The notes under the pieces: model-generated
Databases searched by the model: none
What the model was told of the DNA's origin: nothing
What the model saw: only the letters and a program-made list of their open reading frames with translations
Shown: in pieces, positions 15,964 to 32,407 of the stretch
Position numbering within the stretch: position 1 is the stretch's first letter
How the letters are laid out: each line of letters begins with the position of its first letter
Program-made: the position numbers and the translations under genes
Origin: a candidate division WOR-3 bacterium
GTDB taxonomy: Bacteria; Hydrothermota; Tepidihabitantia; Tepidihabitantales; Tepidihabitantaceae
Assembly (NCBI GenBank): GCA_965649205.1
Contig: CBFGJV010000011.1
Coordinates: forward strand, 1 to 64,000
Length of the DNA stretch: 64,000 nt
Direction: 5' to 3'

Positions 15964-17136
15964 ATGAAGGAACGCACTAAGTTTTTCATAATCCTCGCTG
16001 CGTTCCTGCTCTTCTATTTCCTGCCGGTGGAACATGCCCGGGTACAAGGAGCATTGCTCGAAGGTTTTCTGATGCTGCAAGATTACGCCCGGCTCCACGT
16101 GCTTCTCTGCCTGGTGCCAGCTTTTTTCATCGCTGGTGCAATCCAGAACTTCATCTCCAAGGAAGCGGTGCTCAAGTACTTCGGCCCGAAGTCAAACAAG
16201 GTGCTGGCGTATTCCGTCGCGTCGGTATCGGGCGCGATTCTCGCGGTCTGCTCCTGCACCGTGCTCCCGATGTTCATGGGCATCTACTACGCAGGCGCGG
16301 GTCTGGGCGTCGCCTCGACGTTCCTCTATTCCGGCCCGGCCATCAACGTCCTTGCCATTCTGATGACCGGCCGCGTGCTGGGCCTGGAGCTTGGGGCGGC
16401 ACGCGCCATCGGCGCAGTTGTCTTCTCGGTAGTCATCGGACTGGGTATGGCGCTTATCTTCTTCAGGTCGGAACGCCGGCGGGCCGAAGGCGCCGGTATC
16501 GCCGGACTCTCTTCGGAAGCGGCCCGGCGCAACCTCGGCCAGAACATCCTCTACTTCGCTGCGATGATTGCCTTCCTTGTCTTCGCCAACTGGGGCAAAC
16601 CCAAAGAACCCATCGGCTTCTTCAGCGCGGTCTATTCGGTCAAGTGGTTCATCGCCGGCGCATTCCTGCTCACCACGCTCTTGATGGTCTGGCGCTGGTT
16701 TTCGGGAGACGAAAGAAAGGCCTGGGTTCAGTCAACCTGGACCTTTGCCAAGCAGATTCTACCCCTGCTCCTCGGCGGCGTCTTTGTTGCCGGGTTCCTT
16801 CTGGGTCGGCCTGGGCTGAACGCGGGCATCATTCCGGACGGCATCATCGCCAACCTCGTCGGCGGCAACTCGCTCTGGGCCAACCTGTTTGCTTCGGTCT
16901 CGGGCGCGCTGATGTACTTCGCCACCCTGACTGAGATACCGATATTGCAGGGGCTGCTCGGCTCCGGAATGGGCAAAGGCCCGGCGCTCGCCTTGCTCCT
17001 CTCCGGCCCGGCGCTCTCCCTGCCCTCAATGATAGTCATCACCCGCACCATCGGTCCGAAGAAGGCACTTGCCTTCATCGGCCTTGTGGTAGTCCTCTCA
17101 ACCCTGGCTGGCTTGGCGTATGGAGCAGTTGTATAA
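15964..17136 (+). CDS. DUF318/ArsP-family permease
   Basis: CLVPAFFIAGAI, LAVCSCTVLPMF, FLYSGPAIN, MYFATLTE, GPALSLP. Confidence 0.9.
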   Translation: MKERTKFFIILAAFLLFYFLPVEHARVQGALLEGFLMLQDYARLHVLLCLVPAFFIAGAIQNFISKEAVLKYFGPKSNKVLAYSVASVSGAILAVCSCTVLPMFMGIYYAGAGLGVASTFLYSGPAINVLAILMTGRVLGLELGAARAIGAVVFSVVIGLGMALIFFRSERRRAEGAGIAGLSSEAARRNLGQNILYFAAMIAFLVFANWGKPKEPIGFFSAVYSVKWFIAGAFLLTTLLMVWRWFSGDERKAWVQSTWTFAKQILPLLLGGVFVAGFLLGRPGLNAGIIPDGIIANLVGGNSLWANLFASVSGALMYFATLTEIPILQGLLGSGMGKGPALALLLSGPALSLPSMIVITRTIGPKKALAFIGLVVVLSTLAGLAYGAVV

Positions 17137-17142
17137 TCAGCC

Positions 17143-18858
17143 ATGATACCCAAGGCGATTCGGCGCGAACATGTCCTAAAGGCCATCGAGGAGATAGACA
17201 AGAATGGAGCGCCCGAGCACAGGAAAGCCAAGAAGTTCCATCTCCGTTTTCGGGGACAAGACTACTCGCCCAAGCTGATTCTCTCGTTGGCCAGCCGCTT
17301 CGCATGTGGCCGTGAGCTTCGCCCGTCCGAGTTCGGCGGAGGCAGGGAGACTAACAACTTCCTGGAACGCCTTAGTTTCAAGATAACGGGCCAAGAAAAG
17401 CTTCTCCCGTCCAAAAAGAAAGCGCGACATAGCGATCGGTGTAGCGACTGCAAGAACGCCATCATCGAATTCCTGCGTCGGGCATATGGAACCGTCAAGG
17501 TTGACCACAGAATCCACGTGCCGGCGAGATTGGGTGGTTACCGTACCTATGGGTGCTACAACGCACTGAAGCGCATACACGCTGCTCTTCAGCAGTACAG
17601 GGGCCACGGTGACTTCGTAAGGCTTAGGAACTTGCACCGCTGCGATGCCTTCATACCCAGTGCCAACAGGGACGTTGAGTTCGACGAGTCTCAGCATTTC
17701 ACGATGGCTCGGCATATCGCGCTCTCCCACTACCCGGTGGATCTGCCGCTTGGCTTCGATAAGCAGGAGTGGATGGAGTACTGTGAGAAGACCCGGGCCA
17801 GTGACCGTGACCCGGCCTTTCGTGACGAACAACGGGCCTGGTATGACACGCTACGTGACTTCCTGCCACTGACCAAAGGGCTGAGTCCGACGCTGAGGAT
17901 TAGGATGGGAGATGTCGCATGGTGCTCAATGAATCCTGAAGACCGCGACGACGCAGAGAAGTTCCGCAGTCTGCTGGGGCTGCGCAGGCTGAGTCCAGTC
18001 GGAACGGCTCCACATGACAACAAGGCAGGTGCCAGAATAGTCACGGTGGCCATCGAGTCAGAAGGTAACTACAGCTTCAAGGGCAGGCAGAAGCTGATGA
18101 AGGAAGTCCTAACGAAGATCCAGAAGGTGATCTCGGGCGATTCGAACTTGGTGGTCTTTCCCGCCGGGTTCTTTCATACCCGCCTGGAGTTACCAAGGGG
18201 ACTTGAGGAGTTCACCGCATCGGCTCAGAGGATTCTTACGTCACTGGGTTCGCAGGATGTCGTCTGCTGCGGCATAGATGGACTCGGCGGAAGAGACCAG
18301 CTTGCCGTGGCGGTGAATCATGCGGATGTCCTGGCTGTCGGGCGGAAGTTCTATCCCACCAAGGACGACCGCGCGAACAACGTCCGCCTTGCCGAAGGTT
18401 ACCTTGCCCAGGAAGCCGGTCGAAGCAGAATCTTTGCAGTCGGGAACCGACGATTCTACTTGGCCGTGTGCTACGATGTCTTTGGAATCAGAAAGAAGGG
18501 GCTGCCAAACCCGGATGTTGAAGGTATCATCGCACTGGTACATGAATTCGGCCCCAAGGGTGAAGTTGGCTCCAGTGACCCGTATTTCGCGAAGCACGGC
18601 TTCGCCGGAGCTTCGAAGCAGTGGAGGTGCCCGGTATTCGGAGCGGCCGTCTTCAGCAACAGGGCAGTTCCCGAGAGATGGCCAACAGGGGTCATCTGGA
18701 GTGAAGGAAGCAAGAGCACAAAGCAGTGGCGCTATGAGGACAACCCGATGAAGCCCAGTGCTGAAGTCCACGTCAGAGTAGGTACTGAAGATGCACTGAT
18801 ACGCATCTTCGATCTTCCTACCGCTGGCAGCAACAGAGCCGTGACTGAAAGGAGATGA
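17143..18858 (+). CDS. Three-domain fusion: McrA-type N-terminal head domain, PD-(D/E)XK-like nuclease, carbon-nitrogen hydrolase (nitrilase)-fold domain
   Basis: N-term IPKAIRREHVLKAIEEID...YSPK...FGGGRETNNFL; middle CDAF...VEFDESQHF...RDEQRAWYDTLRD; C-term VVFPAG, RKFYP, LAVCYD. Confidence 0.65.
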   Translation: MIPKAIRREHVLKAIEEIDKNGAPEHRKAKKFHLRFRGQDYSPKLILSLASRFACGRELRPSEFGGGRETNNFLERLSFKITGQEKLLPSKKKARHSDRCSDCKNAIIEFLRRAYGTVKVDHRIHVPARLGGYRTYGCYNALKRIHAALQQYRGHGDFVRLRNLHRCDAFIPSANRDVEFDESQHFTMARHIALSHYPVDLPLGFDKQEWMEYCEKTRASDRDPAFRDEQRAWYDTLRDFLPLTKGLSPTLRIRMGDVAWCSMNPEDRDDAEKFRSLLGLRRLSPVGTAPHDNKAGARIVTVAIESEGNYSFKGRQKLMKEVLTKIQKVISGDSNLVVFPAGFFHTRLELPRGLEEFTASAQRILTSLGSQDVVCCGIDGLGGRDQLAVAVNHADVLAVGRKFYPTKDDRANNVRLAEGYLAQEAGRSRIFAVGNRRFYLAVCYDVFGIRKKGLPNPDVEGIIALVHEFGPKGEVGSSDPYFAKHGFAGASKQWRCPVFGAAVFSNRAVPERWPTGVIWSEGSKSTKQWRYEDNPMKPSAEVHVRVGTEDALIRIFDLPTAGSNRAVTERR

Positions 18859-18859
18859 C

Positions 18860-19099
18860 TTGAAAGTCCAGGTACTCGGAATCGGCTGTGCCCGATGTCA
18901 GGAACTCGAGAAGCGCGTGATGGACGTGCTTGCCGAGCTGAACATCGCGGCCGACATTGAACACGTCAAAGACCTCAAGCTCTTCGCCTCGATGGGTGTC
19001 TTCATGACGCCCGGGCTTGTCATTGACGGGAAGGTCGCCTCTCAAGGCAAAGTGCCGTCCAAAGACGAACTGAAGAAGATGCTCGGCGCGGGCAAGTAG
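18860..19099 (+). CDS. Small thioredoxin/glutaredoxin-like protein (MTH895 type)
   Basis: LGIGCARC, TPGLVIDG. TTG start after GAAAGGAG. Confidence 0.9.
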   Translation: MKVQVLGIGCARCQELEKRVMDVLAELNIAADIEHVKDLKLFASMGVFMTPGLVIDGKVASQGKVPSKDELKKMLGAGK

Positions 19100-19101
19100 C
19101 C

Positions 19102-19500
19102 ATGGCTGGGTGTTGCACCTCGAACGAACCAAGCTGCACCTGCGGCTCGAAGGACGTCCTGCTGCTGGCCTGCTCCGGCGGCTCGAACGTCGGACAGATT
19201 GCCAACGATGCGGCCAAGGCGCTCGACGGCTATGGCCAAGGTTCGATGTACTGCGCCATCGGCGTCGGTGCGCAACTAGAGAGTTTCGTCAAGAACGTCC
19301 GAGAGAACCCGTGCGTCGCGATTGACGGCTGTCCGGTAGCCTGCGTGCGCAAGTCATTGGAGAACGTCGGGGTGAGACCGGCGGTGCATGTGGTCGTCAC
19401 CGAACTGGGCATCAAGAAGCACGGCCAGTTCGACCACACCAACGACGACATGGCCAAGGTCGTCGGCGCAGTCGTGGACGCGCTGGCGCATAAGCCATGA
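19102..19500 (+). CDS. DGC-domain putative zinc-binding protein
   Basis: ACSGGSNVGQ, MYC, IDGCPVAC; Cys-rich N-terminus. Confidence 0.9.
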   Translation: MAGCCTSNEPSCTCGSKDVLLLACSGGSNVGQIANDAAKALDGYGQGSMYCAIGVGAQLESFVKNVRENPCVAIDGCPVACVRKSLENVGVRPAVHVVVTELGIKKHGQFDHTNDDMAKVVGAVVDALAHKP

Positions 19501-19754
19501 GCGCCCAACCCGACCCGCTCGTCTGCTATTGCGGCAAGGTCACGCGCGGTCGGATCATCTCTGCCATCCGCGCCGGGGCGATATCGCTCAAGCAGATTCA
19601 GGAGACGACCGGTGCCGGCGTCGGCGACCGCTGCAAGGAACTGAACCCTAAAGGCGTCTGCTGCATTCCGGACATCCTCGCCATTCTCAAAGAGGTAACC
19701 GGCACGAAAGAGACCGGCGGCTGCACCTGCCCGCGCTGCGGCCCGAAGCGGTAG
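19497..19754 (+). CDS. BFD-like [2Fe-2S]/metal-binding small protein
   Basis: VCYC...TTGAG...C..LNPKGVCC, C-terminal CTCPRC. ATGA overlap with the DGC gene. Confidence 0.85.
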   Translation: MSAQPDPLVCYCGKVTRGRIISAIRAGAISLKQIQETTGAGVGDRCKELNPKGVCCIPDILAILKEVTGTKETGGCTCPRCGPKR

Positions 19755-19833
19755 CTGTGCCCGTACTGGCCAATCCCGATGGTTTGCAGGTCTGCCGGCT
19801 TTGCAGAGCCGCGAAGTAGGCTAGAATGTAGCT

Positions 19834-19974
19834 ATGCAAATGAAACAACCACTCTTGCTGATAATGCTTGTCGTTACTCTGCTGGCCGCATGCGGCGAGA
19901 AGAAACCCGCGGCAAGCGGCAATCCGACCGACAGTACTCCGAAACCGGTGAACCCGTGCCCTACTGGTCGTTGA
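19834..19974 (+). CDS. Small lipoprotein, 46 aa (49 aa to TAG 19983 if the UGA is Sec); not in the ORF track
   Basis: MQMKQPLLLIMLVVTLLAAC GEKKPAASGNPTDSTPKPVNPCPTGR*. Lipobox LAAC; TAGAAT -10 box 6 nt before the ATG. Confidence 0.65.
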   Translation: MQMKQPLLLIMLVVTLLAACGEKKPAASGNPTDSTPKPVNPCPTGR

Positions 19975-20080
19975 GGATACTAGCCCCGGCGCGTGTCGCC
20001 GGGCATTGAGAGAATCTGCACGAACGGTGACGCTTCTGTGAAATAGATACTCGGCTGTAGCCACAGAGAAGCTCTGCCGG

Positions 20081-20212
20081 ACGATGCTCTACGGCCTTTC
20101 CTCGGGTGCGGCACTTGCCACGGTTGTTGGCGTCCTCATCGAAGTCCCGGTGATGCTCCTCTTGGTACGCATCTGCCTGCGCACGCGGCACTGGTTTCCG
20201 GTCCGGGCCTGA
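20081..20212 (+). pseudogene. acr3: 3' remnant of Acr3 arsenite efflux permease
   Basis: Translates to [43 protein letters not shown], the Acr3 C-terminal signature ([17 protein letters not shown]). No 5' part present. Confidence 0.85.
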
Positions 20213-20239
20213 TCAGCAACACGGCTCGTCGGTGCAGAG

Positions 20240-22996
20240 CTATATCCAGCCCTTGCGCAGCAGTAACCTCTTGACTCCCTGAGTAAGTGCCAGGTATCCG
20301 ACCAGAGTGAGCGCCAGCAAAGGCCAGTAGAGCAACGGCAATCGGACAAAGCCCAGCGCGCCGGCCAGGGGCGAGTAGGGCAACCAGACGCCTACGGCCA
20401 TTACCGCGAGCGTAGTCAGCGTGAGCGGCGCGCTGGCCCGGCTCTGAATGAGAGGTAATCGGTTGGTGCGGATGACGTGGATTATCAGCGTCTGCGTGAG
20501 CAGCGACTCGACGAACCAGCCGGTGTGGAACAGTGCCGCCTGGGCAGGGGTCTGGCACTTGAAGATGAAGTACATCATCAGGTAAGTCGTGTAATCGAAC
20601 ACCGAACTGCACGGCCCGATGAGGACGATGTAGCGGGAAATGGCACTCATAGTCCAGGGCCGGGGCCTGGCTATCTGCTCGGCGTCAACCGCATCGGTGG
20701 GAATCGGGACCTGCGAGAAGTCGTAGAGCAGGTTATTGGTCAGAATCTGTATCGGCGCCATCGGCAGGAAAGGCAGCCAGGCGCTCGCGCCCAGCACGCT
20801 GAACATATTCCCGAAGTTGGAGCTCGCACCCATCCTGACGTACTTCAGAATGTTGGCGAATACTTTCCTGCCTTCCAGCACCCCTTCTTCAAGAACAAGC
20901 AGGTCCTTTTCCAGCAGGATGAGGTCGGCGGACTCCTTGGCGATGTCCACCGCGGTATCAACCGAGATGCCCACATCCGCGGCCCGCAGCGCGGGAGCGT
21001 CGTTGATGCCGTCGCCCAGAAAGCCGACCACATGCTTGCGGCTCTGCAGTGCCATGATGATGCGTTGCTTGTGCGCGGGAGAGAGTCGCGCCATCAGGGT
21101 CGCCTGCTCGGCTGCGGCGGCAAGTTCCTCATCCGACATCGTCTCTATCTCGGGGCCGAGCAGTACGTGGTCGCCGGCGATACCCACTTCCTCGCAGATT
21201 TTCCTGCTGACCAACTGGTTGTCGCCGGTCAGCACCTTTACCGCGACGCCGTGGCGATTCAGAGTCTCGATGGCCGGGCGGGCGGTATGCTTGGGCGGGT
21301 CAAGGAACGCGACGTATCCCTTCAGCACCAGATCCTGCTCGTCGTCTTTGGTGTAGGTCTGCCTCGGCCGCAGTTCCCGGTAGGCCAGTGCCAGAACCCG
21401 GAACCCGTCGCTGCTCAGCCGCTCGTACTCCTCTTTCAGGTCATCAATCAGGAACGCCGCCATCGGATACAGGTTGCCGTTCAATTCGTATCGCGTGCAG
21501 CGCGCAAACACCGCCTCGGGCGCACCCTTGCAGATCAGCCGATGCCGTCCGCGGGTGCTCTTGACCACGACCGACATCAGCTTGCGCTCGAAGTCAAACG
21601 GCAGTTCGTCAACTTTCACGTGTTCCCGGGCCTGCAACCGTCCGTGCTCCTCGGTATGGCGCAGGATGGCCCGGTCGAGCACGTTGCGCAGGCCGGTCTG
21701 GAAGTAGCTGTTCAGATACGCCATCTCCAGCACCGTATCGTTTTCCTGCAACCCGACGTCGCAGTGCTGTTCTAAAATCACCTCGTCCACTGTGAGCGTG
21801 CCGGTCTTGTCGGTGCACAAGACGTCCATCGCGCCCAGGTTCTGAATGGAATTGAGCCGCTTGACGATGACCCGCTTGCGGGACATGGCGAGCGCGCCCT
21901 TGGAAAGACACACGGTCACAATCATCGGCAGCATCTCCGGCGTGAGCCCGACCGCTACCGCGACGGCGAAGAAGAAGGCTCCGCCCCAGTCGTGCTTGGT
22001 CAGCCCGTTTATGACGAAAACAAGCGGAACCAGTACCACCATGAAGCGGATCATCAGCCAGGTGAAACCGGAAACACCCTTGTCGAAACTCGTCTGCGCC
22101 CGCTGGCCGGACAGCGTGCTGCTCATCCCTCCCAGGTAGGTCCTGCGGCCTGTGGCGACGACCACGGCCGTCGCGGTGCCGCTCGCCACGCTGGTTCCCT
22201 GATAACACACGTTGCGATATTCCAGCGGAGTCGCGGCCGCGTCACCCGGCGCAAAGCGCCGGGAATCACGGGTTTCGCCCCTGAAACCCGATTCACTGCC
22301 CGCTTCAGCTCTTGCCGGGACTTCCGGGGTTTCCCCGGATTCCGGCCGAATCGGCCCTTCGCCGGTGAGGCCCGACTCGGGGCGTTGGACGCCCGGCGAT
22401 TCCGTCTTTTCAACCGGCAGGGACTCTCCTGTCAGGCTGCTCTGGCTCACGAACAGGTCCTTGGCCGTGAGCAATCTGACGTCGGCCGGAACCATATCGC
22501 CCGCCGCCAGGTTCACGACATCCCCGGGCACGAGCTCGCTCACGGGCAACTCCCGTGCCGCACCGTCACGCAGTACGTTGGCCGTGACGCGAATCATCGC
22601 CTTCAGGCGGGCCGCGGCCCGGTCGGCCCGGTACTCCTGAAGAAACCTGAGCGTTACCCCCAAGACAACCATCACCAGCATCACCATTGCGGCACGGACG
22701 TCTTTGGTCAAATACGAAATGACGGCGAGTATTGAGAGAAGTATCACCAGCGGATTGACAAGTGACAGCCCCAGCAGACGCAGCCAGCCGAACCGGCCTT
22801 CTTCGGCCAAGACGTTGTGACCGTGCAGCCCCTGTCGGCGCGATGCCTCCTCCTGGGTGAGACCATTTGCCGATGTCTGCAGCCTGGTGTATACCTCCGC
22901 GACCGACAGTGCGGCACACTCCACCAGAAGCGGAGATACCTGGATGCGCGCCGTCGCGCGGCGGAAAAAGCTGCTGCCCCTGCCCGGCACTGCCAT
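20240..22996 (-). CDS. mgtA: Mg2+-importing P-type ATPase
   Basis: TGESLPVEK, AVGLTPEMLPMI, DKTGTLT, GDGINDAP, ASSNFGN, FHTGWFVES. Confidence 0.95.
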   Translation of the reverse strand: MAVPGRGSSFFRRATARIQVSPLLVECAALSVAEVYTRLQTSANGLTQEEASRRQGLHGHNVLAEEGRFGWLRLLGLSLVNPLVILLSILAVISYLTKDVRAAMVMLVMVVLGVTLRFLQEYRADRAAARLKAMIRVTANVLRDGAARELPVSELVPGDVVNLAAGDMVPADVRLLTAKDLFVSQSSLTGESLPVEKTESPGVQRPESGLTGEGPIRPESGETPEVPARAEAGSESGFRGETRDSRRFAPGDAAATPLEYRNVCYQGTSVASGTATAVVVATGRRTYLGGMSSTLSGQRAQTSFDKGVSGFTWLMIRFMVVLVPLVFVINGLTKHDWGGAFFFAVAVAVGLTPEMLPMIVTVCLSKGALAMSRKRVIVKRLNSIQNLGAMDVLCTDKTGTLTVDEVILEQHCDVGLQENDTVLEMAYLNSYFQTGLRNVLDRAILRHTEEHGRLQAREHVKVDELPFDFERKLMSVVVKSTRGRHRLICKGAPEAVFARCTRYELNGNLYPMAAFLIDDLKEEYERLSSDGFRVLALAYRELRPRQTYTKDDEQDLVLKGYVAFLDPPKHTARPAIETLNRHGVAVKVLTGDNQLVSRKICEEVGIAGDHVLLGPEIETMSDEELAAAAEQATLMARLSPAHKQRIIMALQSRKHVVGFLGDGINDAPALRAADVGISVDTAVDIAKESADLILLEKDLLVLEEGVLEGRKVFANILKYVRMGASSNFGNMFSVLGASAWLPFLPMAPIQILTNNLLYDFSQVPIPTDAVDAEQIARPRPWTMSAISRYIVLIGPCSSVFDYTTYLMMYFIFKCQTPAQAALFHTGWFVESLLTQTLIIHVIRTNRLPLIQSRASAPLTLTTLAVMAVGVWLPYSPLAGALGFVRLPLLYWPLLALTLVGYLALTQGVKRLLLRKGWI

Positions 22997-22997
22997 A

Positions 22998-23051
22998 CTA
23001 GAAGCGGCGGACAGGTTCTCCGGCCGGTCGTTGGTTATTGCGGTTTTTCAC
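22998..23051 (-). CDS. Putative 17-aa leader peptide upstream of mgtA
   Basis: GTG start, MKNRNNQRPAGEPVRRF-TAG. Stop lies 1 nt before the mgtA ATG; start lies 6 nt below a TAGACT -10 box. Confidence 0.4.
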   Translation of the reverse strand: MKNRNNQRPAGEPVRRF

Positions 23052-23057
23052 GCCGCC

Positions 23058-23087
23058 AGTCTAGCCTGACCTGGTGCGAGAAGTCAA
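23058..23087 (-). promoter_or_regulatory. sigma70-like promoter for the mgtA leader
   Basis: TTGACT, 18 nt, TAGACT on the minus strand. Confidence 0.5.
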
Positions 23088-23130
23088 TAGGAAATCAGCG
23101 GCCCAGGCGCCGGGCTCGCCAATCAGAACA

Positions 23131-23685
23131 CTAGCGGTCCAACTGGTTCAGCCGCGCCTGCGCCCGGTTCAGCCGCTCGTCGAGAAACCGCTCTACATCG
23201 CTGACCGCTTCCGCATCGGAGATAACTGAGAACGCCGCAGCCATTCTTCTGGTCTCCTCCAGTTGCACCTCGGCCCAGTCCAGCACCGCGGCGGACGAAC
23301 CGGCCCGTCGCAGGCGTGCGACCTCGCGCAGCATCGCGCTTGCCTTGTGTTCGTACTGGTACTGCAGACGGCGGTTCGCGGCTGCTCCCGCGGACTGGTC
23401 GGTGGAATTCGGCCTTGTTGAGGCCGTAGACGAGCGGCCGGTCGCCGTCTGGCTGATGAGTTCGCCCCAGGACTTGTGCGCGAGCATCGGCACGCCCACG
23501 GCTGTCAGAGTCAAGAGCCAGGCAACGGCCAGTCCGAGCAGCACCGCCCATCTGACCCGAGATCCCGCGTGCGGCGCGTATTCGCCGGGCCGAGCACCGC
23601 AGGCGAAACAGAACACCTGCCCGGCCGTCATCTTCTCTCCGCAGAAAGGACAGCGGCCCTGGTCCTGACCCTCGCTCAACTTCAT
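23131..23685 (-). CDS. Zinc-ribbon, single-TM hypothetical protein with helical C-terminus
   Basis: CPFCG...CFACG followed by a hydrophobic helix. ATG 23685 overlaps the upstream stop (ATGA). Confidence 0.7.
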   Translation of the reverse strand: MKLSEGQDQGRCPFCGEKMTAGQVFCFACGARPGEYAPHAGSRVRWAVLLGLAVAWLLTLTAVGVPMLAHKSWGELISQTATGRSSTASTRPNSTDQSAGAAANRRLQYQYEHKASAMLREVARLRRAGSSAAVLDWAEVQLEETRRMAAAFSVISDAEAVSDVERFLDERLNRAQARLNQLDR

Positions 23686-24380
23686 TCCTTCCCTGGCCGA
23701 AGTCTGAACCGGCCGCGGCCGGCCTTGCCCGAGCCGTGCCGCGGCTGGATTCCAGGCAGGCCGCACAGCTTGGCTATCGCGCGGTCCCAGGCATCCCGTT
23801 CCCTGCCCGGTTCCTGGTTGGAGCGCCAGTCCTGGCGCTGTTTGAGTTCCCCCAGGTCCTGAACCAGTTCGGCCACCTTACCCTGCTCAGCTCTGAGCAG
23901 GTCGGCACGCAGCACCGCGTCGCTGGTTTGCTCCAGGACGAGCGCAAAGTGCGGCAGGCACAGTCCGGGCGACTCCTGGTAACGAACCTGCAGAGCCTCA
24001 TCCCGGAAATGCGCGACAAACTCCTCCACACCCTGCCGCTCTGCTTCCGCTTCTTCCGCGCACAGCGCGCAGTCCTTTCCGGAAACAGGCTGTCGGCCGG
24101 CCTCCAGCAGGATGCGCACCATTTTCATCAGGTCTTCGTAGATGATGGTCTGCCCCAGCACGTCGCCGGCAGAGCGCACGAGCCAGGCGTGCCGGTTACA
24201 GAAACCCAGAGACCTGCGCAGTTGCTCCCGGGTGCCGAGGTCATTGACGCGCTCGTACAACAGCGTGTCTATCCAGCGCGCGGTGCGCCGGGTGACCAGA
24301 TGGCAAATGGGACAGCCCCTTGCCAGCGCGTCCAGTATCTCCTGCAATACTACTCCGGCCGGTCCTCTGCGTGCGCTCAT
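23682..24380 (-). CDS. DUF6062-like Cys/His metal-binding protein
   Basis: Duplicated module: CPIC...GFCNRH and CALC...GLCLPH; LLYERVND motif. Confidence 0.75.
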   Translation of the reverse strand: MSARRGPAGVVLQEILDALARGCPICHLVTRRTARWIDTLLYERVNDLGTREQLRRSLGFCNRHAWLVRSAGDVLGQTIIYEDLMKMVRILLEAGRQPVSGKDCALCAEEAEAERQGVEEFVAHFRDEALQVRYQESPGLCLPHFALVLEQTSDAVLRADLLRAEQGKVAELVQDLGELKQRQDWRSNQEPGRERDAWDRAIAKLCGLPGIQPRHGSGKAGRGRFRLRPGKE

Positions 24381-24586
24381 CTTGCCAGACGACCAACCAG
24401 AAGCGCGACGCCCACGCTCAGGCCGAAGAGAGCAAGGAAGGTTACCACTTCTGCCCTCAGCGCCTCGCCTATGACCTGTCTTCGGCCGAGTTTGTGCCGT
24501 TGGTACTCCATATAGACGATGGCAAACGCCGCTCCGCCGCCCAGGAGACTGAACGTTCCGTTCACCGCGAGCAGCGTGCCCAGCAT
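24377..24586 (-). CDS. Small two-helix membrane protein (69 aa)
   Basis: Two hydrophobic segments around YMEYQRH. Translationally coupled to neighbours. Confidence 0.7.
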   Translation of the reverse strand: MLGTLLAVNGTFSLLGGGAAFAIVYMEYQRHKLGRRQVIGEALRAEVVTFLALFGLSVGVALLVGRLAR

Positions 24587-24595
24587 CGGACCGCC

Positions 24596-25846
24596 CTATT
24601 GCTGCTGTGAAGTCCCATTCTCCGGCTCCTCTTCCTCGGCGTCCGGGATGAGGCGCACGTCACCGCGCGCGCCCTCGGGCTGGCCCATCGCGTCCACATC
24701 CGGCAGAAGGTGCCGCGGCAGGAAGGCAAGCGTGGCGATGACTGTCGGCACCACCGCGCTGGCGATGACCGCGGCGACCAGGAACGAATACTGCGCCTCA
24801 TTGACGATGCCGTGCGAGAACCCGTACAGGGCCGATATAGTCCCAAAAGTCAGACCGGTTGACATCATCAGAGTATAATACCAGCGTTCAGTGCGTTCCT
24901 TCCGGTAGTGGGAGATTACCGGAAACAGCCCCAGTGTCTTGGTCAGCACCTTGCCCCCGAGCAAAGCGAGGAACACGAGCGGAGCGCCGATGAGCGCCGG
25001 CAGGGAGACAAGCGAGCCGGCCCGGATGAAGTAGAACGGCGTGAGAAACCCCACTGTCAGAGTGCGCAGGCGCCGGACAAAGTCGTGGTCCATCGCCGAA
25101 GACCCGGCCAGCACCATCCCGATGAGATAGGCGGGCAGTACCGCCTCGCTTCCTGACCAGAGCGCCAGCGCTCCCAGCCCGAACACGACAAGCGCCACCC
25201 ACTTGGTACGCACTGCGGCGGTGCGGCCGGCATAGCGGCGGGCAAGCCTCCTGGTGGCAAAGGGCAAAGCGACCAGCACTACGGCTGTCGCGACGGCAAA
25301 CACAGCGGTCTTGACCGTGAAAGGCGCGAAGATGAAGGCCAGGGCCAGCACCGTGCCCAGGTCGTTCACGAAACACGCGCCCAGTATCCCCTTGCCGAAC
25401 TCGGTCTTGTTGAAACCTGTCTCCAGCATCACCGCGTACACTACTGCCATCGAAGTAGTGGAAAGCGCCACACCGGCGAGCAGGCTTGCCTTCACGCCCC
25501 AATGAAGCAGAAAATGCGCCAGCGCCGCGCAACCCAGGAACGGAGCGAAGAACCCGACCAGGCCGATTACCGTCACCTCGCCCAGCTTGCGCCGCAGTAC
25601 TGATGGTTCAAGCTCGGCCCCGGCCAGAAAGGTGAGCATCACCGCGCCGGTCGCGGCCAGAAACCGCAGCCATTCGGCGTTCGCACCCAACGAGCCCGGC
25701 CCGAAAAAGCGCGTGGCAAAAGCACCCGCGGCCACGCCGACGCATATTTCTACGAGGGCGATTGAAACCCGCAGATGATTGGCGATGATGGTGGCGACGA
25801 CCGCCAGGGCAAGCCAGACTGCGGCCAGAACAAACGTCTCCTGCAA
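24596..25846 (-). CDS. Cation:proton antiporter (CPA2 family)
   Basis: LTFLAGAE, LSTTSMAVV, FVNDLG, FLTPFYFIRAG; many TM helices. TTG start at 25846 after GGAGG. Confidence 0.88.
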   Translation of the reverse strand: MQETFVLAAVWLALAVVATIIANHLRVSIALVEICVGVAAGAFATRFFGPGSLGANAEWLRFLAATGAVMLTFLAGAELEPSVLRRKLGEVTVIGLVGFFAPFLGCAALAHFLLHWGVKASLLAGVALSTTSMAVVYAVMLETGFNKTEFGKGILGACFVNDLGTVLALAFIFAPFTVKTAVFAVATAVVLVALPFATRRLARRYAGRTAAVRTKWVALVVFGLGALALWSGSEAVLPAYLIGMVLAGSSAMDHDFVRRLRTLTVGFLTPFYFIRAGSLVSLPALIGAPLVFLALLGGKVLTKTLGLFPVISHYRKERTERWYYTLMMSTGLTFGTISALYGFSHGIVNEAQYSFLVAAVIASAVVPTVIATLAFLPRHLLPDVDAMGQPEGARGDVRLIPDAEEEEPENGTSQQQ

Positions 25847-25874
25847 AGAATCCTCCGGTTCACTGCTTATCGGA

Positions 25875-25900
25875 CAAACCCGGGCAACGGAAGTACCCGG
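25875..25900 (-). terminator. Possible riboswitch expression-platform hairpin
   Basis: Minus strand CCGGGTAC-TTCC-GTTGCCCGG then GTTTG, directly 3' of the aptamer. Weak U-tract. Confidence 0.4.
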
Positions 25901-25904
25901 CCTT

Positions 25905-25951
25905 GCAGGAGTCATCAGCCCGCAGGCGATTCTACGGGGGACTCCATCCCC
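25905..25951 (-). ncRNA. Fluoride riboswitch (crcB motif)
   Basis: Minus strand GGGGAUGGAGUCCCCCGUAGAAUCGCCUGCGGGCUGAUGACUCCUGC. P1 GGGGA/UCCCC, pseudoknot GGAGU/ACUCC, P3 GCC/GGC, conserved GAUG and UGAUGAC. Confidence 0.92.
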
Positions 25952-25960
25952 GCGGATGAG

Positions 25961-25988
25961 ATTATAGCGCGAACGAACCAGCCTGCAA
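25961..25988 (-). promoter_or_regulatory. sigma70 promoter for the riboswitch operon
   Basis: TTGCAG, 16 nt, TATAAT; 9 nt upstream of the aptamer. Confidence 0.6.
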
Positions 25989-26577
25989 GCCTGGCTCCAG
26001 AACCCGACAGTGGGATGATTTGGGGATTCCTGTTCGTGGTTGGGTACGCGCCTGTCAGCAGAACTGACCGTGCTGGTGGCGGCAACACTGCGTAGCTTCA
26101 TCGCTTCTCATCTGCTGTCATAGTTGGCGAACCCCCTGGCGACACAGGTGCGGCTGGAGCTTGCGACCATACTGCAACGTTGCCTGGCCACGCTTGTCGC
26201 GGCCTGACCGCCTGCGCATCTGTCCGGGCAACCGTTACCGGAAGTTGCGGCGCGCGCGGCTACCCAACTGAGTGGGGGAGTCACTTCCCCCTCTACAGGC
26301 CAAACAAGGCCGTCAACCAACCTTCAGAAGGTAACTCGCTGTGAGAGTAGTTTTTAGCGCGGTTTCAGACAGAAATGCCGGGTTCGGCCGGTATCCACTT
26401 CCAAGCCAAGCAGTTGAGCAGTCACAACGGCAACAATACAGGAATCCAGCAGGTTAGGCGTTCGGGCAGGTTGGGAATAGGCCTGGCAAAACCACAGCCG
26501 GACGACTGTGAGCGTTGGCGCAAGACGCGACTCCAGCCGCTCTGGAAACGACTGCTGGCCGGGCAGGACATCCGCCG

Positions 26578-26622
26578 CTGACATCTGACACTTGACTTCC
26601 AGCTTCTAGCTTCTGGCATCTG
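26578..26622. repeat. Degenerate 7-nt tandem array
   Basis: ctgacat ctgacac ttgactt ccagctt ctagctt ctggcat ctg. Confidence 0.6.
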
Positions 26623-26677
26623 CCCTCGTCCGCTCCTCCTGTTGACTCCCGCCCGTTTCTACCCTAGCATCCCGGCG

Positions 26678-27172
26678 ATGGGCAAGACCTGCTGTCTGCT
26701 TCTGGCCGCCTGCCTCGCGCTACTCTTCGCCGGCTGCGACGAACTGTTCTACGCCGGGCTGAACGAAGCCGAATCCACCCCGGACAGGCCGGTGTTCCTG
26801 CTCGGCAAGGACGGCAGTCTCTTTCATGGTATGGCCAAGGTGTACGGGTTCCGTCTCAGCGGCCGGCCCAGGAAACCGCCGCCCCGGCCGGACGCCGTGA
26901 ATCTCTGGCTTGAGTTCTGGTCGGCTCAAGCCGACTCCGGCCTGCGCTACATCGAGGTACACAAGATTGCCTATGGCGAACTGCCCGAACGCACGTTCCT
27001 CGTCTTCGGCCCTGATACTCTGCGTGCCGGGTTCATCTACAGCTTCAATCCCTGGTATCACGGCCTCGGCACCGCCGCCTACTTCGAAATCACGCAGGAC
27101 AGCTCGGGAGCCAGGGCGATCCACGCCCTGACCGAAGAGGAGTTCCTGGCAATAATCCACGATACGCTCTGA
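26678..27172 (+). CDS. Hypothetical lipoprotein
   Basis: Signal peptide with lipobox FAGC. ATG lies 7 nt after TTGACT-17-TAGCAT. Confidence 0.75.
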   Translation: MGKTCCLLLAACLALLFAGCDELFYAGLNEAESTPDRPVFLLGKDGSLFHGMAKVYGFRLSGRPRKPPPRPDAVNLWLEFWSAQADSGLRYIEVHKIAYGELPERTFLVFGPDTLRAGFIYSFNPWYHGLGTAAYFEITQDSSGARAIHALTEEEFLAIIHDTL

Positions 27173-27360
27173 TGCATCGCTGGAACGTCCTGGTGGCGCT
27201 GACCCTGCTTCTCTCCTGCCGTGGCAGAGGGCCGGGCACGGTTGACTGGCAGAGCGTGAACGACTAAGCCTACCAACTGCAGAACGTTGACCTGGAAGCA
27301 ATGGGCAACACGAAGTTCGATTCTTGCGTGATTGACTACTCGCTGGTACTGGCAGGCGCG
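27172..27360 (+). pseudogene. Remnant of MJ1477/TM1410 (GH114-like) lipoprotein
   Basis: MHRWNVLVALTLLLSC...DWQSVND*AYQLQNVDLEAMGNTKFDSCVIDYS with in-frame TAA at 27265, then RWYWQ in a shifted frame. Confidence 0.7.
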
Positions 27361-27678
27361 CCACCCGCAAGCTCGCCCTGGCCCGGTAGCCCGGAGCCGA
27401 TTCTGCGCACCTTTGCCCTGTTCTCTACCGCTACGACCTCAAGGTTATCTGGTAACGACAGTTTCTGACCTTTCGCTTTTGCCTTCTGGCTTGATGTTTG
27501 GGTCAGACTCTAGACTGCTGGGCCGCCAAGTCACTTTCTTGCGCTTCTTGACACCCAGCCGAATACAGGTATTCCCGATAGCAGACGGAGACTTCGCCCA
27601 CAGCTAGCGGACACAGGGGTTTCTTATTGTGTTCCCTGACGAAATACGCAGACAGAACAAAGAAGGAGGCATAGTATC

Positions 27679-27936
27679 ATGAAACGGATATACGTCACCG
27701 TGCTTGCGCAGCTGGCACTGTTGTCGCGTGGTCAACACACGACAACCTACACCGGCTTGTTCTGTGTCAATGTCAACGGAAAGTATGGATACATTGACAA
27801 GACTGGTAAGTATGTCATCAACCCGCAGTTTGACTACGCAGGGAGTTTCTCCGAGGGGCTGGCAGTTGTCGAGATCGGTGGCAAGTGGGGCTACATTGAC
27901 AAGACAGGAAAGTTCATCTGGGAGTTGTCGGGATAG
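27679..27936 (+). pseudogene. Truncated WG-repeat (KWG) protein
   Basis: GKYGYIDKTG...FSEGLAVV...GKWGYIDKTG; only about 1.5 repeats. Good RBS; lipobox position reads LLSR. Confidence 0.65.
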
Positions 27937-28229
27937 CACTTCACTAGGCCTACGGGGTCAGGTGCTGCCTTTTTCACGGAAACGCTGAGCGATGAGTTCT
28001 GAGTACTGAACGAAGGGAGAAGAAGACGCTGACCGCCTGATTGCGGCGTAAGCTCTGTCCGACCGCCTGCCCCTCGTCACCTCAGACACGGTCTTCCGCC
28101 GCTGAGGCGTCAGAGTCGTCGAGCGGCAACGCTCCCTCGTCCTGCCAGGTCTGTGTGTGAGACAAGAGCCATAGGAAACTGCTTCCCAAAATCGAGAAGG
28201 ACGATAACAGGTACCTCGCCGGTTGTCCG

Positions 28230-29273
28230 GAATTGCAGAGACGCTACACGCAGGGCCCTTCCTAGTCTTGCGGCGTGTCAATATCGTAGCGCTTACCGAC
28301 CCGCGGCCCACCTTCTCCTTTGCCGCCAGCTTCATCGTGGGCATGAACAGGTTGGGCTTGAGCGCTATCAGCCGGTCCACCTGCATCAGTGCCAGAAGCT
28401 CCTCCTTCGTGTCATACCGGCGATAACCAGCATAGCTGCGCACCAGACTCCAGTTCTTGCTCTCCACGTAGGGCGAGCCATCCTTCCGGTACGTCCTGGT
28501 GAAGCGCAACTTGTGTGTATCGGCAAACTTCGCCAGCGCCTGGTTGATGACATTGCTCGAATGGAGAGCAGTAACCGGAAACGGCGACGCACGTAGCGCG
28601 CTCTTCATCGCCAGTATCCCCCAGATGTGCGCCTTGTTGCACAACACCTGCCAAGGGCTCTGCCCGCCGTGACTTACCAGGTCTATCTCCAGATACCCAA
28701 GCTGCTTCTTAGGTTTGTCGTGGTAGGTTTCCACCGGGATGCATTTCTTGAGCCAGGAGGCGAAGGGTTGGACCTGTAGCGGCGTTTAGCCAGAAGCTCT
28801 TTCCGGACTGGTCGGAGTAAGCGGTCCACGGTAGATGGGCTGATAGTCTGAAACTTAGCCTTGACCTCGGCAGATGCTTTCTTGAGCTTGGGATGGCAGA
28901 ACAACCACTGGTGGTTGAGGTGGATGAAGTGAGCGAGGTGGAGGGAAGACGGGTAGCGGGCAAGCTGCCAGAGGGCGAGCAGATAGGGCAGCATATCTGG
29001 GCCGTAGCGTTTCTTGTGGCCGCGGCGCGAGAGGAGGGAGCAGGACGGGTCGGCGATGACGGTAGTGCTGTGGCGGTGACCTTCTGGCCAACGTGGCGGA
29101 GGACGAAACTGAGATGCTTCCGGCCGAGGTGTGTGATATCTGTCAGCTCGTCCAGCAGTGCGGACCTGGTCTTCTTTCTTGCGGCCCGGTACTTTGAAGC
29201 ATTGGCGGAGATGATGGACTTCTTAGCGGTCACGGTGTAGACCCCTTCTGGTATTGTGGCTACCACTGGACAT
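28230..29273 (-). mobile_element. Degraded IS transposase (integrase-core/DDE type), multiple frameshifts
   Basis: Pieces in different frames: KYRAARKK..LLDEL; ISPSTVDRLL; GYLEIDLVSH; FTR..YVESKN..VR..GYRRYDT; KRYDIDTP. ATG 29273 after AAGGAGA. Confidence 0.8.
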
Positions 29274-30114: not shown

Positions 30115-30150
30115 GCCGGCCTCCGAAAACCGGAGGCCGGCTGTTATTAT
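30115..30150. terminator. Hairpin between convergent genes
   Basis: GCCGGCCTCCG-AAAAC-CGGAGGCCGGC then TGTTATTAT. Confidence 0.75.
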
Positions 30151-31778
30151 TAGTGATAAGAGCGAGAGAACTTTGCTTTGGCGACGCAACGTCCACAAGG
30201 CTCCAGCAGACGGCAGAAGTATACACCGGAGGGAAGCGGTTGACCTGTGTCGTCTCTGCCGTCCCAGATAGTTTGGAAGGCAGCAGGAATCGTGCGTACC
30301 GTTCTACCGGAAGCGTTGCTTATCTGCAGCAGGCTGCCGCGTTTGGTTAAACCAGCAACACGGAAACAGGTGGCCTGGCTGAAAACAGTTGGAAACACAG
30401 TTAGACGTATGGGGCCGGACAGCCGAGGTTGGGGAGCATTCAGAGCAGTCAGAGGTACGACTCGAATTGTACCGTCGTAGGGAATCAGATTCTGTCCGGT
30501 TACAACCAGCCTTATTTCGCCCGTGTCGCGTGGCTCCACGTAGAGCAGGACCTGACCGGCGAAGTCGCTGGTGTCGTGGACACAGAAGGAAGATTTCATC
30601 GAGGCACATACTGTGGCCCCTCCCACTGGCTCAGAATCACTGTAAACATTTATCAGTATCCACTGAGGGGCAGCGGATATTTCCATGGGCTGGTCAATAT
30701 GCAGGCGACGAGGAGTTGCGGTCCAGATGGACAGTTCCGGGTCGCCGAGCAGATTGAAGCCGCGGTAATCGCTTGTTTTGGTGGGGTACTCAGCATACAG
30801 CTGATTTCGCGCCCGTATAGCAGCTTTGCCTAGTTTGTATATGTTTTCTACGAAAAGGCCGGTGAAGAACCCGCGTGATACGGCGCTCCTTACCTGGGCT
30901 ACGCCCGAGGCAGAATGGGTATTACCAAAGAAGGCTACAGCTCCCTTGAGATTGCCGATAGTGCCGGCTTTGAGCCATGCTTCTCCCACCATAGAGTCAT
31001 TGGGATATAGAGTCATTGTCTCGCAAGTAATGGAGAGAATGATTGGCAGCATTTTGCGGTTGGAGGTCTGGGCAGGGTCTAAAGCAAAGGGTGTACGCCA
31101 ATTGCCGCCGGCGGTGCCACGATAGAGTACGAGGCCGGTGCCGGAGTCTATGCATTTGATTACGTCACTAGCGTCGTTTCCCCGCAGGGAGGAGAGGGTG
31201 TCACACTCGGTGAAACCAGCCTGACCTGCCAGTTCCGCAGCCATTCGGGCGTCGGCCCAGTAGGTGGGCCAGTCACTGTCGTTGTAGTCCCGGACGATAG
31301 CGGTCAGACCCAACATCCAGTCTGGTTTGGTCAAGTCCGGTTTTACGGCGTAAGCCATGGTCTTGGCTATCATTACTTCAAGCTGAGAGCTGGATTTGGC
31401 TGGAAATCTTCCCACTGCCAGTTCAGAGCGCAGGTCGCCCTCCATATCTGAGTAGATATGGTCTGTGGCATAGTTAACTTGGCCGGTGTAGACCCGGGCC
31501 GGCAAGGCTGTGGGTGAACCTACGAGCAGCACATATTCCGGCCTAAGAGGCCAGGTGTTATACGCCTGTTTGATGTAGTTTCTTATGCTGGTAGTATCAG
31601 CACCAATTTCTGACAGTTTCACTACCTTGGTTTCAAGCCCGGTCGCCTGCTTCCATTCCGCGAAAGGCTGGATAGTCGGAGCCAAGTCGTCGGTAGTTAT
31701 GATCAGATACCGTGCACCATCCAATGCGACTGCGAAGTTGATAATTAAGGCAGCCAGAAGCAATATGGTGGTTTTCAT
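30150..31778 (-). CDS. Peptidase C25 (gingipain-like) with C-terminal sorting/FlgD-like domain
   Basis: YLIIT, PEYVLLVG, ELAVGRFP, FNLLGDP, IWDGRDDTG..LPSGVYF; signal peptide. Confidence 0.88.
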   Translation of the reverse strand: MKTTILLLAALIINFAVALDGARYLIITTDDLAPTIQPFAEWKQATGLETKVVKLSEIGADTTSIRNYIKQAYNTWPLRPEYVLLVGSPTALPARVYTGQVNYATDHIYSDMEGDLRSELAVGRFPAKSSSQLEVMIAKTMAYAVKPDLTKPDWMLGLTAIVRDYNDSDWPTYWADARMAAELAGQAGFTECDTLSSLRGNDASDVIKCIDSGTGLVLYRGTAGGNWRTPFALDPAQTSNRKMLPIILSITCETMTLYPNDSMVGEAWLKAGTIGNLKGAVAFFGNTHSASGVAQVRSAVSRGFFTGLFVENIYKLGKAAIRARNQLYAEYPTKTSDYRGFNLLGDPELSIWTATPRRLHIDQPMEISAAPQWILINVYSDSEPVGGATVCASMKSSFCVHDTSDFAGQVLLYVEPRDTGEIRLVVTGQNLIPYDGTIRVVPLTALNAPQPRLSGPIRLTVFPTVFSQATCFRVAGLTKRGSLLQISNASGRTVRTIPAAFQTIWDGRDDTGQPLPSGVYFCRLLEPCGRCVAKAKFSRSYH

Positions 31779-32407
31779 TAGGGAATCTGGGACATTGCCG
31801 GACGGTTTTTTGACCATGCAAATGAAGCTTCAATTGTAAATTCTAATCGTCTGCCCTGATTGGTCAAGCAGCAGGGTAGGAAATACCGTTGCCGGGTGGA
31901 AGCAAATGGGTTGAAGCTCGGGAATACTTGTGTTTCCCTAAAGATGGTTTTCTGGTGGAAAAGAGGGGAGAAAGGCGAATTATGGGTTTGACACGGAAAT
32001 TGATGGAGGATTGACCCCCGGTCGCTTAGGATACAAGTTTCCGGAAAGGACGGAGACACTAATCGGAAAGTAACTGATCGGGTAAGTGATTTAAAGCATG
32101 AAAGATAGGATTGATGGTGCAGAATCAATTTCGGATAAGGGTGGAATATGAGGTGGAGTTTCAAGAACAGGCCGTCCTTCGGCTTCTGGTTGGTACGCGG
32201 GCGGATGTATGGAGTTAGATGTAAGCTTACCTGTCGGCAGATTTAGAGCGTGATGCAAACTATAAAGGCGTAGACTTATATCTCCATGCGGGTTACAGTT
32301 GTTCGTGTACTGTAGAGGGTGTGACTCACCTACGTGTCTTATATGCTGACATTGTGCTGGCTTTCAGAGCCAATACTGGTTGGTTTGGTTGGCAGGAGCG
32401 TCAGAAG

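Follow-up and report, generated by a model that had tools for sequence, protein, structure and literature searches.

A fluoride riboswitch in front of the gene for a CPA2-fold transporter, a member of the cation/proton antiporters (CPAs), was found in a stretch of 64,000 nucleotides (nt) from a candidate division WOR-3 bacterium (assembly GCA_965649205.1, contig CBFGJV010000011.1, positions 1 to 64,000; hereafter the window). According to the distribution and the residues of its family, the transporter may export fluoride directly, replacing the known exporters Fluc and CLC-F, and a probability of about 0.5 was given to this reading. The observations behind it are the aptamer, the gene order, a genome that lacks both Fluc and CLC, and the link of the whole family to the riboswitch. 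With the chances evenly balanced, the clade would constitute a third prokaryotic fluoride exporter family, in which the NhaA/NapA fold was re-tooled for an anion, and which would serve in place of Fluc/CLC-F in Nitrospirota, Planctomycetota, Omnitrophota, Desulfobacterota, WOR-3, some archaea and other groups. Its annotation as a Na+/H+ antiporter would then have been wrong ever since the first description of the riboswitch, and the fluoride regulon would gain two more members not described before, a DUF6062 protein and a 69-amino acid (aa) protein.

Riboswitch and leader of the transporter gene

Positions are those of the window, and every part of the operon, including mgtA, lies on the minus strand. 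A promoter-like sequence, predicted to be of the sigma-70 type (TTGCAG-16-TATAAT, 25961..25988), was recognized by eye; a -35/-10 pair of similar type lies ahead of the riboswitch in each of the 9 leaders compared from the family, and the sequence is absent from a consensus promoter scan because its -35 box matches at 3/6 positions only. The fluoride riboswitch aptamer (crcB motif, RF01734) follows at 25899..25960. The Rfam covariance model matched it over the full length (model positions 1-64) at 45.8 bits (E 1.7e-9), above the gathering score of 34, which bears out the well-formed aptamer reported in a preliminary description of the window, and this match (25960-25899) was the sole Rfam family in the window and the sole RF01734 match over cut-off in the genome.

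The aptamer ends 53 nt before the TTG start of the transporter gene (24596..25846, 416 aa). The leader contains an internal hairpin (25902-25877), a Shine-Dalgarno (SD) sequence GGAGG (25856-25852) and no U-tract terminator, and in the ligand-free minimum free energy fold the aptamer tail (25912-25901) is paired with the start-codon region (25848-25838). The leader fold has ordinary stability (z-score -1.31). From such folds a translational expression platform was predicted at 25838..25912, and the leader is predicted to work as a translational ON switch. Pairing of tail and start codon as a family-wide feature was rejected, since it was found in 32/63 leaders, the level expected by chance, and the translational switch is therefore a prediction for this locus only. 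A U-run was present in 39/63 family leaders, and these may be terminator switches. In many leaders (L014, L024, L036, L047, L050 and others), GGACUC was seen between the SD sequence and the start codon; it is complementary to the GGAGU loop in the 5' part of the aptamer, and a second OFF pairing is possible.

Pairing of riboswitch and antiporter across genomes

Relatives of the transporter were taken as the best 80 of 326 confirmed in the genome collection (60-88% identity, from 79 genomes), with host phyla including Nitrospirota, Planctomycetota, Omnitrophota, Desulfobacterota, Bacteroidota and Bacillota, and with a Methanomassiliicoccales archaeon among the hosts. In the Rfam scan, RF01734 was over cut-off on the same strand and <=400 nt upstream at 63/80 loci, farther upstream at 6, and was not found at 11. 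The riboswitch was also upstream at 6/6 more distant Nitrospiraceae loci (42-48% identity), and no riboswitch was found upstream at three WOR-3 loci (59% identity) or at the three Fluc loci scanned. Ten riboswitches over cut-off were counted in 151 WOR-3 genomes, nine of which precede a gene of the antiporter family and one a Fluc gene. Near 21 other PF00999 genes none was found by a sequence pattern, a pattern that catches 44/63 of the Rfam-positive leaders. The riboswitch and the antiporter are the conserved core of the system, and the proposal of a fluoride-response unit centred on the antiporter and lacking Fluc and CLC-F is supported.

Enolase genes adjoin the antiporter in L020, L052, L076, L082 and L153, and USP genes in L009, L063, L148-L151 and L153. 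L149, L150, L152 and L153 are Nitrospiraceae islands with 2-3 fluoride riboswitches each, which control an ABC-transporter-like gene, 1-2 antiporter paralogues, USP, enolase and a dynamin-like GTPase, and a TauE/SafE gene was noted in the fluoride operons of L082 and L150.

Distribution relative to Fluc and CLC-F

The host genome (97.95% complete) gave 0 matches at E<=1 with either PF02537 (Fluc) or PF00654 (CLC), hence no CLC-F, and no Fluc in the operon; the absence of Fluc and CLC-F that had been noted for the operon thus holds genome-wide. The corresponding control searches were positive in 11/14 and 13/14 genomes, respectively. Among the 79 genomes hosting antiporter relatives, Fluc was over cut-off in one and some CLC was present in 27. 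CLC-F has the CLC fold with GNNLI/GMGLI, GREG[T/V] and GEVTP. The last two are CLC-F signatures according to a review (PMC11139923), and GEVTP or GREG[T/V] was found at 0/34 CLC loci (29 with G[R/K]EGP, 5 unassigned), a motif comparison without a positive control. At L116, L117, L217 and L218, a CLC subtype with GKEGP and GGSGGIVTP was seen, the latter one letter off the CLC-F motif GEVTP.

Fluc and CLC-F are usually mutually exclusive, about 3% of cases having both, according to that review (PMC11139923). The antiporter was compared with Fluc in this respect in 201 Nitrospiraceae genomes (the family of a Nitrospira record), using E<=1e-40 as the antiporter family threshold. The antiporter was present in 77 and Fluc in 59, and both were present in 3 against 22.6 expected (Fisher p 2.9e-11, kinship ignored). 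Fluc was found in 2/56 genomes of the close antiporter clade, in 1/21 of the distant clade and in 56/124 genomes without the antiporter. The 201 Omnitrophota genomes contained the antiporter in 3, Fluc in 111 and both in none. Since Fluc is found in 56/124 and 111/201 comparable metagenome-assembled genomes (MAGs), incompleteness does not explain its exclusion. The two genes also replace each other between close relatives in WOR-3, both within one genus (Fluc in G052, antiporter in G054-G056) and between sister genera (Fluc in G101 and G102, antiporter in G097, G098 and G100). The antiporter and Fluc are accordingly distributed in the mutually exclusive manner of fluoride exporters, with exceptions on plasmid islands and with related genomes that are not independent of each other. 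Plasmid records with an antiporter relative numbered 38, and in the third of the islands opened no crcB was found within 6 kb of it. On one plasmid island, the best match of a P-type ATPase next to crcB is to the H+-efflux type and not to MgtA.

Family and residues of the transporter

The transporter gene matched PF00999 with 109.8 bits (cut-off 26.2) and is the only PF00999 gene of the genome. Its description as a CPA2 antiporter is upheld by PF00999 and by the CPA2 motif; the TIGR00932 (CPA2) cut-off was not reached (101.5 against 238.3 bits), which places the protein outside this KefB/KefC-centred model. The top profile matches among solved structures were TtNapA (E 7e-28) and KefC (E 1e-18), an Atlas search returned PF00999 clusters only, and in a quick tree the protein grouped with CPA2-like controls. 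In this tree, 74 family rows formed one long-stemmed clade apart from 21 controls (SH-aLRT 98).

According to the CPA-motif rules, a CPA2 has no Glu at position 5, Asp at position 7 and Lys/Arg at position 8 (PMC6181914). Aligned to NapA, the transporter has A157, D162 and K303 at these positions and falls within the CPA2 subtree. At position 6 of the alignment, N161 was present in 37/37 close members and T in 6/6 distant members, so that the acidic residue of the electrogenic DD motif (NhaA, NapA) is missing.

Residues were counted in 43 locus-derived members (37 close and 6 distant) and in 21 control PF00999 proteins drawn from 8/10 genomes searched, a small set that includes CPA1s. R/K275 was present in 43/43 members and 0/21 controls, and K/R299 in 41/43 members and 0/21 controls. 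The net charge of residues 254-270 was about +2.7 in the clade against -0.4 in the controls (control range -4 to +2). PRGE of NapA is replaced by TGLT, and an acid at the position of NapA E333 was found in 0/43 members and 10/21 controls. Judging from the NhaA topology, the basic residues may face the ion path.

Genes behind the transporter

The promoter, aptamer, hairpin, four coupled genes and same-strand mgtA of the preliminary description are all present in the sequence. The transporter gene is followed after a 9-nt gap by the gene of a 69-aa two-helix membrane protein (24377..24586; two hydrophobic segments, no family over cut-off), then by that of a 232-aa DUF6062 protein (23682..24380), and finally by that of a 184-aa protein with a Zn-ribbon, one transmembrane segment and a helical C-terminal part (23131..23685; Zn_Ribbon_1 23 bits, below the cut-off of 25), with ATGA overlaps at both of the later junctions. 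Of 9 family genomes, this downstream block follows the antiporter in 5 (with DUF6062 in 4) and is absent in 4. At the 80 antiporter loci, the 69-aa gene was present in 0, DUF6062 in 1 and the Zn-ribbon gene in 0; the three genes are therefore not required subunits. Their suggested role as accessory subunits of the antiporter is not supported, and an obligate role was rejected.

The DUF6062 and 69-aa genes recur elsewhere. The family hidden Markov model of the 69-aa protein matched in two other fluoride operons, L189 (6e-16) and L198 (6e-11), the latter with the order riboswitch, DUF6062, small protein, DUF190-CBS. The DUF6062 assignment was confirmed with PF19538 (58.8 bits against 27, in two stretches), as was the duplicated CxxC/CxxH site, an internal repeat with ligand residues C23/C26/C61/H64 and C104/C107/C141/H144, and these eight residues were invariant in 18/18 aligned sequences; two Zn sites are predicted from them. 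The structure model is all-helical (predicted local distance difference test score, pLDDT, 87). Compared with solved structures it gave no fold match (best Foldseek E 0.74; VIA-align Z 4.6, root mean square deviation 3.5, 85 aligned), and an Atlas search returned DUF6062 clusters only, with recognition under the Atlas threshold.

Within WOR-3, DUF6062 was found in 4/226 genomes, always in this operon. Outside WOR-3 it was found at 28 metagenome loci, of which the 20 longest were scanned with Rfam. RF01734 was present in 10/20 scanned loci, several of which are close kin; at 7 loci it shares the strand of DUF6062 and lies upstream of it, in 6 of these <=100 nt from the match. Neighbours of DUF6062 were enolase (6 loci), USP-CBS, DUF190-CBS, H+-pyrophosphatase and pyrophosphatase, as well as chromate transporter, MFS, dynamin-like and MoxR genes, and DUF6062 shares a locus with the antiporter family in L082, L178, L191 and L192. 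DUF6062 is offered as a lead, a likely member of the fluoride regulon, and the functional lead proposed for this protein gains weight from the 7/20 relatives with an upstream riboswitch. Neither the term DUF6062 nor a link of its subgroup to the fluoride riboswitch was found in the literature searched.

The DUF6062 and 69-aa genes are likely modular members of a wider fluoride regulon and are not needed for the antiporter. Outside this WOR-3 lineage, the Zn-ribbon protein was seen in one related metagenome fragment and nowhere else, and its gene is likely a lineage passenger.

Several further features of these genes and of other fluoride operons were recorded. DUF6062 occurs as two-domain open reading frames (ORFs) or as three tandem paralogues in L186, L187, L194, L195, L197, L199, L200 and L202, and some of these precede a MoxR ATPase or pyrophosphatase-domain gene. 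At a contig end, G000:C20:39949-40446 (L131 5950-6447) holds a degraded second 69-aa gene and the first 93 DUF6062 codons (75% nt identity), next to a WG-repeat ORF and a sequence like an insertion sequence, resembling window 27679-29266. Uncharacterised genes were also noted in the fluoride operons at L180 7005-10579, L189 1903-5004 and L178 2015-4295, among them an MFS transporter gene directly behind a second riboswitch and genes for ATPase-like and PH-domain-like proteins and an EamA protein. A chromate transporter gene lies in the fluoride operon of L183.

mgtA and surrounding sequence

The mgtA gene (20240..22996) encodes a Mg2+-translocating P-type ATPase and was identified as a true MgtA (P-type IIIB) with TIGR01524 (1141 bits against a cut-off of 611). 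The 134-nt gap before it holds a terminator-like hairpin (23112-23096) and then a promoter-like TTGACT-18-TAGACT (23087-23058), both on the minus strand and both found as consensus matches, a scan in which terminators (8 against 7.7 expected) and promoters (5 against 2.1 +/- 1.9) are by themselves near chance. These sites likely mark the boundary between the operon and mgtA. No MgtA was over cut-off in 5/5 relatives with the riboswitch-antiporter unit, and no mgtA lay beside the antiporter at any of the 80 loci. In a genome of the same genus, mgtA is not at this position and the Zn-ribbon gene runs into a convergent cluster. Read-through into mgtA, or its membership in the fluoride operon, was rejected as being without comparative support (0/5 relatives, 0/80 loci), and, with the sites in the gap also considered, the proposal that the module includes Mg2+ import is not supported.

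Thioredoxin-like, DGC and BFD-like small genes at 18860-19754 (plus strand) converge on mgtA. In the genome of the same genus, the Zn-ribbon gene is immediately adjoined by a related cluster, one that has permease and arsenite-transporter-like genes, and mgtA therefore looks inserted between two islands. It is probably a separate insertion and not part of the module. The G+C content is 58-65% over 16000-28000 of the window, whereas the genome has 54% and the flanks have 50-53%; the operon sits in this GC-rich block, which was possibly acquired. Elsewhere in the window, a protein of 571 aa is encoded at 17143-18858 (plus strand), for which the matches, to DUF7255 and of N-acyltransferase/nitrilase-like type, were weak, and a peptidase C25 with a FlgD-Ig tail at 30150-31817 (minus strand).

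Proposed mechanism and rival explanations

In the proposed mechanism, the riboswitch would switch on the CPA2-fold transporter, which would export fluoride and stand in for the absent Fluc/CLC-F. Judging from the predicted fold, the aptamer tail would pair over the TTG start when fluoride is absent, and binding of fluoride-Mg would hold this tail within the pseudoknot, so that translation could start. Going by distribution and residues, the core, of the NhaA/NapA type, would keep the carboxylate D162 as a proton or Na+ site, and R275, K299 and R259/R261 would draw the anion; the result would be F-/H+ exchange or an F- efflux coupled to a cation. The 69-aa and DUF6062 genes, modular regulon members in the way of enolase and USP, would have been added downstream of the exporter gene in a single WOR-3 lineage. 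A gene that merely restores pH would be expected together with an exporter, and a replacement would be expected to avoid it, in the way that Fluc and CLC-F avoid each other; avoidance was seen, which favours the exporter. The dedicated clade, its added positive charge and its avoidance of Fluc are together the reason for setting direct export at an even chance.

The preliminary description had left open whether the antiporter is an exporter or a compensator of pH and cations, and of these two the near-exclusion with Fluc favours the exporter. As a compensator, the protein would be a conventional electroneutral antiporter of Na+ or K+ against H+ that is induced by fluoride and repairs the pH or cation balance, and the exclusion of Fluc would come from ancestry, ecology or incomplete MAGs. 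We consider this rather unlikely, even with the D162/K303 core intact and with support from several sides: riboswitch-linked Na+/H+ antiporters are read as serving pH homeostasis in the review (PMC11139923), relatives occur together with crcB on plasmid islands, one of them with the H+-efflux-like P-type ATPase, and Clostridioides difficile has CLC and an NhaP-type antiporter behind one riboswitch, according to a published report (PMC11477304). It predicts an exporter alongside, yet Fluc was found in 1/79 hosts and a recognisable CLC-F in none; moreover, the avoidance repeats in two clades and in the swaps between sister lineages, and the Fluc frequencies in comparable MAGs argue against incompleteness. 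A cation/H+ antiporter might instead replace an exporter indirectly, if proton entry flattened the pH gradient and less fluoride were trapped after entering as hydrogen fluoride (HF). This would account for the intact cation site and the exclusion of Fluc together, and entering as HF, a weak acid, is described as the main route in the review (PMC11139923), the thermodynamic step being our own deduction. Yet internal fluoride would at best fall to the external level, the basic residues specific to the clade would be left unexplained, and any resident CPA would do, whereas the riboswitch pattern was near 0/21 other CPAs; this explanation is held to be improbable, and somewhat more so than compensation.

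Least credible of all, to the point of being scarcely tenable, is the full module, with the 69-aa, DUF6062 and Zn-ribbon proteins as antiporter subunits and mgtA co-induced for Mg2+ import. The genes are tightly coupled, the block is kept in 5/9 family genomes, DUF6062 and the antiporter share the four loci given above, and a divalent-cation ATPase is found in the fluoride operon of Enterobacter cloacae FRM (PMC5533749); yet the three genes are at 0, 1 and 0 of 80 antiporter loci and the block is missing from 4/9 family genomes, MgtA is absent from 5/5 relatives and preceded here by terminator- and promoter-like sites, and the plasmid-island ATPase next to crcB is of a type other than MgtA.

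Direct export itself has to be weighed against a number of observations. The canonical CPA2 site is kept (D162 in 43/43, K303 in 43/43, TTS in the unwound helix), and by the CPA-motif rules (PMC6181914) the protein reads as an electroneutral cation/H+ CPA2. The CLC-F motif comparison counts here as well, because it was without a positive control and left 5/34 loci unassigned. In 226 WOR-3 genomes the antiporter was present in 15, Fluc in 14 and both in none, numbers without statistical power (p 0.61). The p values overstate the exclusion, because kin are not independent and no genome tree was used, and the survey sets partly overlap the 79 host genomes. Neither gene was found in 197/226 WOR-3 and 68/201 Nitrospiraceae genomes, and four WOR-3 relatives (G218, G219, G225 and G226, 96-98% complete) had no Fluc, CLC or PF00999 gene, and so have either a further fluoride defence or no need of one; exporter absence is common in these MAGs, and the absence of Fluc here alone therefore proves little. 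Both genes occur together in 3 Nitrospiraceae genomes and in G029, and in 2/3 plasmid islands opened crcB lies in the same island as an antiporter relative (54-58% identity). An in-place exchange of Fluc and antiporter was sought and rejected, none being found between 8 Fluc and 25 antiporter loci of Nitrospiraceae (blastn), and likewise a shared-locus swap in WOR-3 (6 against 6 loci, blastn and blastp).

If the clade does export fluoride, this would explain part of the genomes without a known exporter, correct a long-standing annotation, reveal anion transport in the cation/proton antiporter family and provide a new tolerance part for engineering with organofluorine compounds and per- and polyfluoroalkyl substances (PFAS). 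The locus also offers a first functional handle on DUF6062.

Comparison with known systems

The pairing of riboswitch and antiporter is already in print, and the gene-association tables of Baker et al. (2012) may list this family. In the review, CLC-F and Fluc are the only bacterial fluoride exporters named, and Na+/H+ antiporters, tied to pH homeostasis, are the next most common riboswitch-controlled genes (PMC11139923); 'K+ or Cl- transport' genes were linked to the riboswitch motif in an earlier report (PMC2864571). No CPA-type fluoride exporter, proposed or tested, and no paper on the exclusion of Fluc by riboswitch-linked antiporters were found in the literature searched, a search that ran outside subscription papers and supplements, and a 2026 preprint rich in mentions of the riboswitch had no passage on antiporters.

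The operon shares with the riboswitch regulons of Fluc and CLC-F the aptamer, the companion genes that lie with its relatives (enolase, USP, DUF190, MutS-like, pyrophosphatases) and the either-or distribution seen between Fluc and CLC-F; unlike them, it controls a CPA2-fold transporter in a genome without Fluc or CLC. The operon ppaC-uspA-eno-gpmA-crcB-orf5249 of E. cloacae FRM, as given in its report (PMC5533749), is likewise led by a riboswitch and has multiple genes with accessory functions, but it uses CrcB and has no antiporter among its six genes and no DUF6062. The DUF6062 protein here is a member of PF19538 over cut-off, with the CxxC/CxxH site duplicated. TtNapA (4BWZ, 5BZ2, 5BZ3) and E. 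coli KefC (8BXG, 8BY2) share with the transporter the Asp of transmembrane helix (TM) 5, the Lys of TM10 and the lack of Glu at position 5, whereas the transporter has Asn/Thr in place of the first Asp, TGLT in place of NapA PRGE, a basic and not acidic stretch at 254-270, R/K275 and no KTN domain. The riboswitch-linked 'Na+/H+ antiporters' of Baker et al. (2012), as cited in the review (PMC11139923), are very likely the same class of genes; they were read as serving pH homeostasis, whereas here one clade avoids genomes with Fluc and carries basic residues of its own.

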